A DNA stretch of 64,000 nt from Heterodontus francisci (lineage: Eukaryota), in assembly GCF_036365525.1 (NCBI RefSeq), contig NC_090421.1:3414725-3478724 (forward strand), read 5' to 3'. Every line of letters begins with the position of its first letter. Within the stretch, counting starts at the first letter, position 1. Below the pieces are notes generated by a model. The model was not told the origin of the DNA, did not search any database, and worked only from the letters and a program-made list of their open reading frames with translations. The position numbers were made by a program, and so were the translations under genes. Shown here piece by piece: positions 22,959 through 24,206 of the stretch.

Positions 22959-23134
22959 CCTCCCTCTACACTGTCCCCATCAAACACTCCCAGGACAGGA
23001 ACAGCACTGGGGTTAGATACAGAGTAAAGCTCCCTCTACAAAAAAAAAGAAAATAAAATGGGATTAGATACAGAGTAAAGCTCCCTCTACACTGTCCCCA
23101 TCAAACACTCCCAGGACAGATACAGCACAGGGTT
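22959..23134 (+). repeat. ~67-bp tandem repeat, middle block with an A-rich insert at 23041-23058
   Basis: Same unit as 21231-21420. Confidence 0.92.
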
Positions 23135-23140
23135 GGCTGC

Positions 23141-23610
23141 GCTCTTTCCCCATATTGACGAACTGGCATTATGGTGCGCATGAACGTTCTTGCCGATGCT
23201 CTTACAAGCATCAACAATGCAGAGAAACGTGGAAAACGCCAGGTTCTCATTCGGCCATGCTCCAAAGTGATTGTGAGATTTCTGACTGTAATGATGAAGC
23301 ATGGTTACATTGGAGAGTTTGAGATTATTGATGATCACAGGGGTGGGAAAATTGTTGTTAATCTCACAGGCAGACTGAACAAGTGTGGTGTCATTAGCCC
23401 CAGATTTGATGTTCAAGTAAAGGAGCTAGAAAGGTGGCAAAATGGTCTACTGCCTTCCCGTCAGTTTGGGTACCTCGTTCTAACAACCTCAGCTGGCATC
23501 ATGGACCATGAAGCGGCCAAGCGAAAACACACAGGAGGAAAAATCCTAGGATTCTTTTTCTAAAATTTGAAACCAGTCTAAAATAAACCATTGAAACCAA
23601 AAAAAAAAAA
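23141..23610 (+). pseudogene. RPS15A: Full-length processed rps15a retrocopy (5'TOP to poly(A)), ORF intact
   Basis: Intronless; starts G+CTCTTTCCCC; AATAAA 23582-23587; A12 tail 23599-23610; perfect 13-bp TSD CAGGGTTGGCTGC (23128-23140 / 23611-23623). Confidence 0.93.
23171..23563 (+). CDS. RPS15A: 40S ribosomal protein S15a (uS8), intact 130-aa ORF within the retrocopy
   Basis: [11 protein letters not shown]...[11 protein letters not shown], full length with no disablements; expression unknown. Confidence 0.9.
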
Positions 23611-24206
23611 CAGGGTTGGCTGCTGGCTAAGTGGAGTGTTGACTGCTGATTGCAGCAACGAGCCTCAGCTGAGAGTGCTGGTGGCAGTTGGAGGTTGCAG
23701 AGGTGGAGAGAGGAGCTACACTGAGCAAGGGAGAGCAGTTACAAACAAGCAGAGGAAAACTCCAACAACAATCGCCTTTAAAAGAGAAGAAAGCGACATT
23801 CTTTTTTTGTTGGAAACAAGGCTTTGTCTGGAGGTGGGTGCTGAACACCAGTAATTTACTTTGGACAGTTGGGGGAGGAACAACAAGGGGTGGGGCTGCC
23901 AATTCAACAGGAATCTGTGCTGCTGCAAAAGCACACAGGGAAGCTCCCTCCCCACCCCAATTGCCAAGCCTGGGTCAGCTGAAGCTGCCCAGCTAAACAG
24001 ACGGAAGGGGATAGATAGTGCCTGGGCAGCTTCAGCTGACCCAGGTGAAGACGACTCCCCCAACCAGAAGACCGGAAGACCAAGTTCAAAGACTGTTTTA
24101 AGTGTACTGTGAGCACCACCTCCAGAAAGCAAGTCATCCCTTTCAGCCTGCCTTTGCCTCTCCTCTATTACCTCAGCCTCTCCACTAACCTGTTGTTTGT
24201 TTGCTT

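Follow-up and report, generated by a model that had tools for sequence, protein, structure and literature searches.

The closest described precedent for the locus analysed here is the SINEU/Tx1-Mar system of crocodilians (Kojima 2015, PMC4494074), in which a target-preferring Tx1 element was inferred to trans-mobilise poly(A)-tailed RNAs into its own target, with on-target shares of 90% for SINEU-3, 23% for SINEU-1, and 13% for SINEU-2. Driver and cargo have no 3' end in common in that system, and tandem insertions occur around the target-site duplication (TSD), as they do here. The cargo there is a SINE family, the target is a Mariner element, and the Tx1 families are old (85-87% identical to consensus), whereas the present cargo comprises spliced mRNAs of many genes, the target is a minisatellite hit at near single-base register, and the drivers are near-identical and intact. 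No Rfam match to a U1/U2-derived head was obtained in positions 21200-24700, and the target is not Mariner-N4; the present system works like SINEU/Tx1-Mar and is not a member of it.

Tx1L of Xenopus laevis (UniRef YTX2) resembles the LINE family described here in its ORF2 (50% identity over 100% of the length, 1347 bits), in a sequence-specific APE endonuclease, and in the use of one repeated target, and differs in targeting the Tx1D DNA transposon rather than a 67-69-bp minisatellite (PMC1950540). That source terms Tx1L 'stringent' with respect to its target, and its passages on the element mention no mRNA cargo. Processed pseudogenes made by mammalian L1 share with the retrocopies at this site an apparent need for poly(A) alone in the RNA, TSDs, 5' truncation, 5' inversion (seen here at L192), and a cap-type G (PMC2912911, PMC4176376, PMC3747384). 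L1 nicks TTTT/AA genome-wide and uses a T-rich primer, whereas here a single repeat is nicked, which would leave a C/G-rich primer. The 'Tx1' that appears in PMC4176376 refers to mutant names, not to the element.

The elements behind retrocopies in non-mammals have been stated to be unidentified (PMC5131818). A recent survey of vertebrate retrocopies (bioRxiv 10.64898/2026.06.26.734816) counted 14,081 in cartilaginous fishes and concluded from abundance correlations that CR1 or Tx1 sustain retroduplication outside mammals; it differs from the present analysis in that 'target site' is absent from its main text, and its passages on these elements give no junction-level assignment or site specificity. 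Our literature search, run outside most subscription journals and Repbase, retrieved no report of mRNA retrocopies at a Tx1 target or of the minisatellite. Tx1 trans-mobilisation had been proposed for SINEs, and what appears to be new here is that the cargo at a Tx1 target includes cellular mRNAs.

The window, the whole 64-kb stretch of DNA that was analysed (G000:C51:3414725-3478724), contains a cluster of insertions in a minisatellite with a 67-69-bp unit (Table 1). One of them, an rps15a pseudogene, occupies the position at which a Tx1 that targets the minisatellite makes its fixed first nick, and it was very probably made in trans by the Tx1 ORF2 protein from a capped, polyadenylated mRNA.

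Table 1. Coordinates of the insertion cluster, in positions of the window
Feature	Position	Strand	Evidence
67-bp minisatellite, 2.9 copies, same as the target repeat	21232..21425	+	TRF score 339; no Rfam match at E<=0.1 (21200-24700)
Older Tx1 copy, 5'-truncated, ending in an A-tail	21420..22948	+	79% identical to 28960-30548
Poly(A)-only insert (23040-23058) flanked on both sides by a 32-bp duplication	23008..23090	+	Sequence
Repeat unit up to the putative first nick GCA/CAGGG (between 23127 and 23128)	23059..23127	+	BLAST to the unit; register as in Tx1 tails
13-bp TSD, 5' copy	23128..23140	+	Sequence
Non-templated G	23141..23141	+	Parent has T
rps15a processed pseudogene, full length, ORF 23171-23563	23142..23610	+	Sequence, Pfam, parent comparison
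TSD, 3' copy, overlapping the Tx1 5' end	23611..23623	+	Sequence
Tx1-clade LINE, full-length, frameshifted	23618..30493	+	A-tail up to 30493
Rest of the interrupted repeat unit (GGGGTTAG...)	30494..30548	+	Sequence comparison

The insert is a full-length processed pseudogene of rps15a. The 13-mer CAGGGTTGGCTGC has exactly two occurrences in the window, at 23128 and 23611, which form a perfect 13-bp TSD. Between them lie, in order, a G at 23141, CTCTTTCCCC at 23142-23151, an ORF of 130 codons with a Pfam Ribosomal_S8 match (E 7.7e-22), which we take to be rps15a, AATAAA at 23582-23587, and 12 A residues at 23599-23610. A DNA search with this copy in the 6.0-Gb assembly returned 20 matches, four of which were exons of the parent gene on contig C24 (G000:C24); the fifth parent exon (the first, 25 bp) was located in locus L008. 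All five exons are joined without introns in the window copy, which is 100% identical to the parent in exons 1-4 and matches it at 129 of 131 positions in exon 5, giving two mismatches in total. Codon 115 (GCG versus GAG in the parent) carries the sole amino-acid change, and the ORF is intact.

The parent lacks poly(A) after its last exon, where the sequence is T-rich, and the A12 of the window copy is thus not parent-encoded. As the parent has a T before CTCTTTCCCC, the G at 23141 is non-templated, and it was likely copied from the mRNA cap; an extra 5' G in full-length L1 and SVA copies is usually read as a reverse-transcribed cap (PMC2912911). An earlier sequence-only reading of this DNA had described a processed pseudogene with a perfect duplication, an extra G, a 5' pyrimidine tract, an intact ORF, AATAAA, and A12. 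Every one of these features was found in the sequence, and the intron-containing parent elsewhere, the contiguous exons, the added poly(A), and the duplication support the assignment as a processed pseudogene. The same reading had divided the duplication into seven repeat and six Tx1 bases. The mixture of repeat and Tx1 bases stands, but the exact split does not: with a Tx1 5' end that looks like the target, no boundary can be fixed within the duplication.

For the target repeat, a strict empty-site pattern gave 7,940 exact matches and a pattern of poly(A) plus site gave 5,016 overlapping matches. At 56 filled junctions, drawn from 44 loci on contigs C1 and C2, the tail was followed by CGGG (34), TGGG (8), CAGG (7), or near variants (7), and the junction sequences place the first nick at GCA/YRGGGTTAG (the slash marks the cut). 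The window retrocopy starts exactly at this Tx1 nick base. Automatic classification of the 56 junctions gave 23 Tx1, 21 poly(A)-only, and 12 other inserts (approximately 21, 25, and 10 when reread by eye), so that poly(A)-only inserts were roughly as frequent as Tx1 tails at the target site. The poly(A)-only insert in the window belongs to a class present at other loci, and its 32-bp duplication starts at the same nick in the preceding repeat unit. The repeat occupied approximately 0.03% of the genome in a calibrated count and 175 of 200,000 bases (approximately 0.09%) in 20 hand-spread stretches. The repeat sites and filled sites listed on C1, C2, and other large contigs lie in clusters no more than approximately 20 Mb from a contig end. 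A secondary tandem array of duplication plus poly(A) units with a period of approximately 45 bp (L023-L047, G000:C1:9681347-9682067) is, from the makeup of its units, a set of insertion scars amplified into a new satellite.

The neighbouring Tx1 (ORF1 at 24648-26691, ORF2 from 26724) is frameshifted and approximately 92% identical to young copies. For its 3' end there were 2133 candidates; 40 were scored, and sequence was fetched for 30. The core directly followed the A-tail in 27 of these 30 (the window's own copy included), 24 by regular expression and three by eye (L068, L070, and L078); of the remaining three tails, two are off-site and one is followed by sequence from deeper within the unit. 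Intact ORF1 (680 aa) and ORF2 (1245 aa) were present in nine of the ten longer Tx1 loci fetched, and eight of the nine intact ORF2s were within 0-6 nt of each other. ORF2 has the Pfam domains Exo_endo_phos (6-226, APE endonuclease) and RVT_1 (511-762, reverse transcriptase), while ORF1 had no Pfam match. ORF2 is far closer to Tx1L than to human L1 ORF2 (269 bits), and the named matches of highest identity to the LINE protein (93% and 74%, partial) were from cartilaginous fishes, to which the host likely belongs. These data assign the family to the Tx1 clade with a preference for its target sequence and point to young, near-identical, intact driver copies in the genome; we infer that the family is currently active. 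The bases GGCTGC start the same Tx1 subfamily in three copies (L202, L203, and L210). Several Tx1 5' variants use the same site, and the responsible subfamily is therefore not singled out.

The rps15a retrocopy (23142..23610) is young, as judged from its near identity to the parent. Its insertion followed that of the neighbouring Tx1 at the same first nick, as the sequence-only reading had proposed: Tx1-specific bases are found within the duplication, and the retrocopy has diverged far less than the Tx1. Given the decay of the neighbouring Tx1, an active copy at another place in the genome is the likely source of the enzyme. The 5' junction CTGGGATTGGCT is common to five young copies (L203, L204, L206, L207, and L208), whose 3' sides begin differently, and these bases are therefore probably part of the element. 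Eight of the first nine downstream bases are restored by the Tx1 5' end (CAGGGTTGG versus CAGGGTTAG).

Stacks in which a long pure-repeat duplication is followed by a short one gave four pattern matches (three independent), from which it follows that the later insert used a site with poly(A) upstream. The mirror pattern, for which either order is possible, gave 16 overlapping matches at approximately 6-7 independent places. The resulting ratio near 1:2 is that predicted if there is no upstream requirement, although the counts are low and some cases could be products of array recombination. From the window insert, sequence beyond +9 appears dispensable, and the stacks indicate the same for upstream sequence beyond one A. 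A short core, mostly the 7-9 bases downstream of the nick, is likely the recognition determinant. The earlier proposal that recognition lies mainly upstream is not supported, given the rebuilding of the downstream bases by the Tx1 5' end and the three stacks. In Tx1L, replacement of seven upstream base pairs lowered nicking and did not abolish it (PMC1950540).

The breadth of cargo was sampled at the site itself. A pattern of AATAAA, tail, and core gave 927 matches versus 16 for a reversed control. From 100 listed matches, 27 non-Tx1-looking places were picked and 26 were inspected, of which eight held host genes named by Pfam (ferritin, rps16, rps14, rpl37, rps27, rps27a, rpl27a, and an IFITM-family gene). 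The other places held 3' UTR-like or unnamed inserts, one SINE, and Tx1 or poly(A)-only inserts, and three were without the repeat. Including rps15a, rps26, and rpl36, at least 11 different host genes are inserted at one register. The core directly followed the tail in all 21 non-Tx1 inserts tabulated, most of which had been selected on the core, and inserts of all kinds (Tx1, mRNA, SINE, and poly(A)-only) have their 3' junction at one position to within 1-2 bases. Cargo and driver have only poly(A) in common: host 3' UTRs join the tail without Tx1 sequence, and no Tx1 3' UTR remnant was found between host 3' UTR and tail in any retrocopy inspected.

Duplications at the site ranged from 0 to about 45 bp, with some junctions blunt and some accompanied by small deletions of the target. 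Calls of 3-4 nt (L122, L157, L189, L191, and L195) were read as chance, that is, as blunt junctions or small deletions, and a 60-nt call at L121 was indistinguishable from an 8-nt deletion in a tandem array. An rps27a retrocopy at the site has its 5' part inverted (L192:322-854, minus strand), which suggests L1-type twin priming by Tx1. Two loci (L165 and L089) carry the abundant SINE of approximately 350 bp, presumably HE1-like, at the Tx1 site with an added A-tail, so that Tx1 may also carry a SINE whose partner LINE is a different one. At two places approximately 0.8 Mb apart on contig C10 (G000:C10; L197 and L198), the same unnamed 3' UTR was inserted at the site with different 5' ends.

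For an estimate of enrichment, retrocopies were picked by gene family rather than by site, and independent events were counted. On-site events were observed for rps15a (1 of 13 besides the window copy; L007, with a 5-bp duplication), rps26 (1 of 5; L122), and rpl36 (2 of 10; L141 and L142), whereas none was observed among the three rpl32 and two rps25 retrocopies. The single match for Pfam PF00428 was a parent exon, with no retrocopy. In total, four of the 33 independent events were at the Tx1 register and 29 were off-site. Parent exons, the window copy and L121 (both found via the site), and the spurious L132 were left out, L121 having prompted the choice of the rps26 family; duplicates (L010/L011, L015/L016, and L124-L129) were counted once.

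Retrocopies are enriched at the Tx1 register, with P below 1e-7 in a sample that is small, biased towards ribosomal proteins, and limited to the best-scoring candidates. The binomial probability of at least four of 33 is 4e-10 at a repeat share of 0.03%, 2e-8 at 0.09%, and 3e-4 at 1%; the uniform null may overstate the enrichment as the repeat is clustered near contig ends, yet these nulls permit landing anywhere in the repeat and all four on-site events sit at the nick. The enrichment anticipated by the sequence-only reading was thus borne out in the family-picked sample. Its premise that processed pseudogenes are scarce does not hold in this genome, which has 14 rps15a events. Its main proposal, that Tx1 trans-mobilises host mRNAs into the repeat, is likely correct given the shared register and the enrichment, but it applies to a minority of retrocopies. 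Some off-site retrocopies have an L1-like duplication starting with AAAA (L013), indicating that other LINEs also make retrocopies. One off-site rps26 retrocopy is repeated six times at 45-50-kb spacing within a tandem duplication (L124-L129, G000:C17:68.94-69.18 Mb). At two places (L159 and L196), GGGTT but not the repeat follows a second LINE-like 3' end with a poly(A) tail; this 3' end marks a candidate source of off-site retrocopies.

A mechanism can be proposed from these junctions. The register is read directly from them, and the endonuclease of an active Tx1 elsewhere would nick the bottom strand at GCA/YRGGGTTRG. Reverse transcription would start on the poly(A) tail without a Tx1 3' UTR, consistent with the observed joins between host 3' UTR and tail, and poly(A) could not pair with the C/G bases expected at the end of the DNA primer. 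The mRNA would be copied up to the cap and a G added; the G is present in the window copy, and its cap origin is probable. The second nick is loosely placed, as the observed range of duplication lengths shows. As the Tx1 5' end resembles the target, a full-length insertion would rebuild the site, and later inserts could stack there by reuse. We infer that the same Tx1 ORF2 nicks and copies, with poly(A) as the sole RNA requirement and with priming that does not depend on pairing. This explanation is limited in that Tx1 is not absolutely specific, as seen in the displaced and off-site tails, and other LINEs could in principle use Tx1-made nicks.

That last point leads to an alternative in which Tx1 makes the nick but the mRNA is captured by another relaxed L1-clade reverse transcriptase or by break repair, or in which an L1-clade family outside the sample has the same target. 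Since most retrocopies are off-site, another retrocopying machine is likely to exist, the second LINE-like 3' end without the repeat is a candidate for it, and blunt junctions and small target deletions occur at the site. We nevertheless consider this capture improbable, because the 3' junction is fixed to 1-2 bases over all insert types, as if one protein both nicks and primes, and no second autonomous family appeared among the 56 junctions, in which the 'other' class is only partly identified. It is quite improbable that Tx1 instead primes on the poly(A) of its own RNA, recognised in cis, and then switches template to a host mRNA at its 3' end. In favour, poly(A)-only inserts and Tx1 tails are approximately equally common (21 versus 23 of 56), and the A-runs of many tails are interrupted, in keeping with slippage or jumping; against this, the inspected retrocopies lack any Tx1 3' UTR remnant before the tail, and the tail of the window copy is a clean A12. 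Priming on the tail of the mRNA itself and a jump from a different poly(A) would leave the same genomic junction.

It is hardly credible that a non-specific LINE inserted here by chance, that array recombination spread the inserts, or that the assembly is at fault. The genome does contain many off-site retrocopies, and arrays do duplicate inserts (L023, L124-L129, and L214/L215), but at least 11 genes at one register are incompatible with a single event, the binomial P is below 1e-7, and a perfect 13-bp duplication with a cap-type G is unexpected for a misjoin. Capture in trans by the Tx1 ORF2 protein is therefore the reading that we prefer for the window copy. We are evenly divided on a broader reading, in which a still-active vertebrate Tx1 lineage would pair a sequence-specific nick with an indifference to its RNA like that of L1. 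Capped, polyadenylated RNA of any kind would then be inserted at a single 9-base address, in copies of up to full length, without a 3' UTR or primer-template pairing; this would account for approximately a tenth of the genome's retrocopies, and the 5' end of the element would rebuild its own target.

These results tie retrocopies outside mammals to a named driver via junction sequence rather than correlation. They indicate that a single protein of the L1/Tx1 clade can be both site-specific and relaxed in its poly(A) recognition, which bears on whether the relaxation is ancestral or has arisen repeatedly, a question raised in PMC3747384. Because the nick is fixed, the repeat naturally records where second nicks fall, how inserts are truncated or inverted, and in which order they arrive, and the young intact Tx1 copies make the claim directly testable. 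In the text of a 2026 review of retrotransposon gene writers (PMC13708176), 'Tx1' is absent. If the proposed mechanism is correct, a site-specific APE element with no need for a 3' UTR would be of interest as a compact RNA-to-DNA writer, and it would also be a warning that site-specific writers can capture host mRNA.

Other features of the window were also observed. A FAM186A/B-like ORF lies at 16059-17966 on the minus strand, with more minus-strand open frames at 20300-21078, and the insertion cluster may be in or next to a FAM186A/B-like gene. The 5' UTR of the neighbouring Tx1, which had no Rfam match in 21200-24700, contains a SINE of approximately 355 bp at about 24207-24560, and four more copies of this SINE are present in the window. 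Elsewhere in the genome, a common TTGGCT is followed by no fewer than six different starts of the Tx1 5' UTR, on near-identical or related bodies (L202-L211, L219, and L226), which suggests repeated exchange of the 5' end with preservation of its resemblance to the target.
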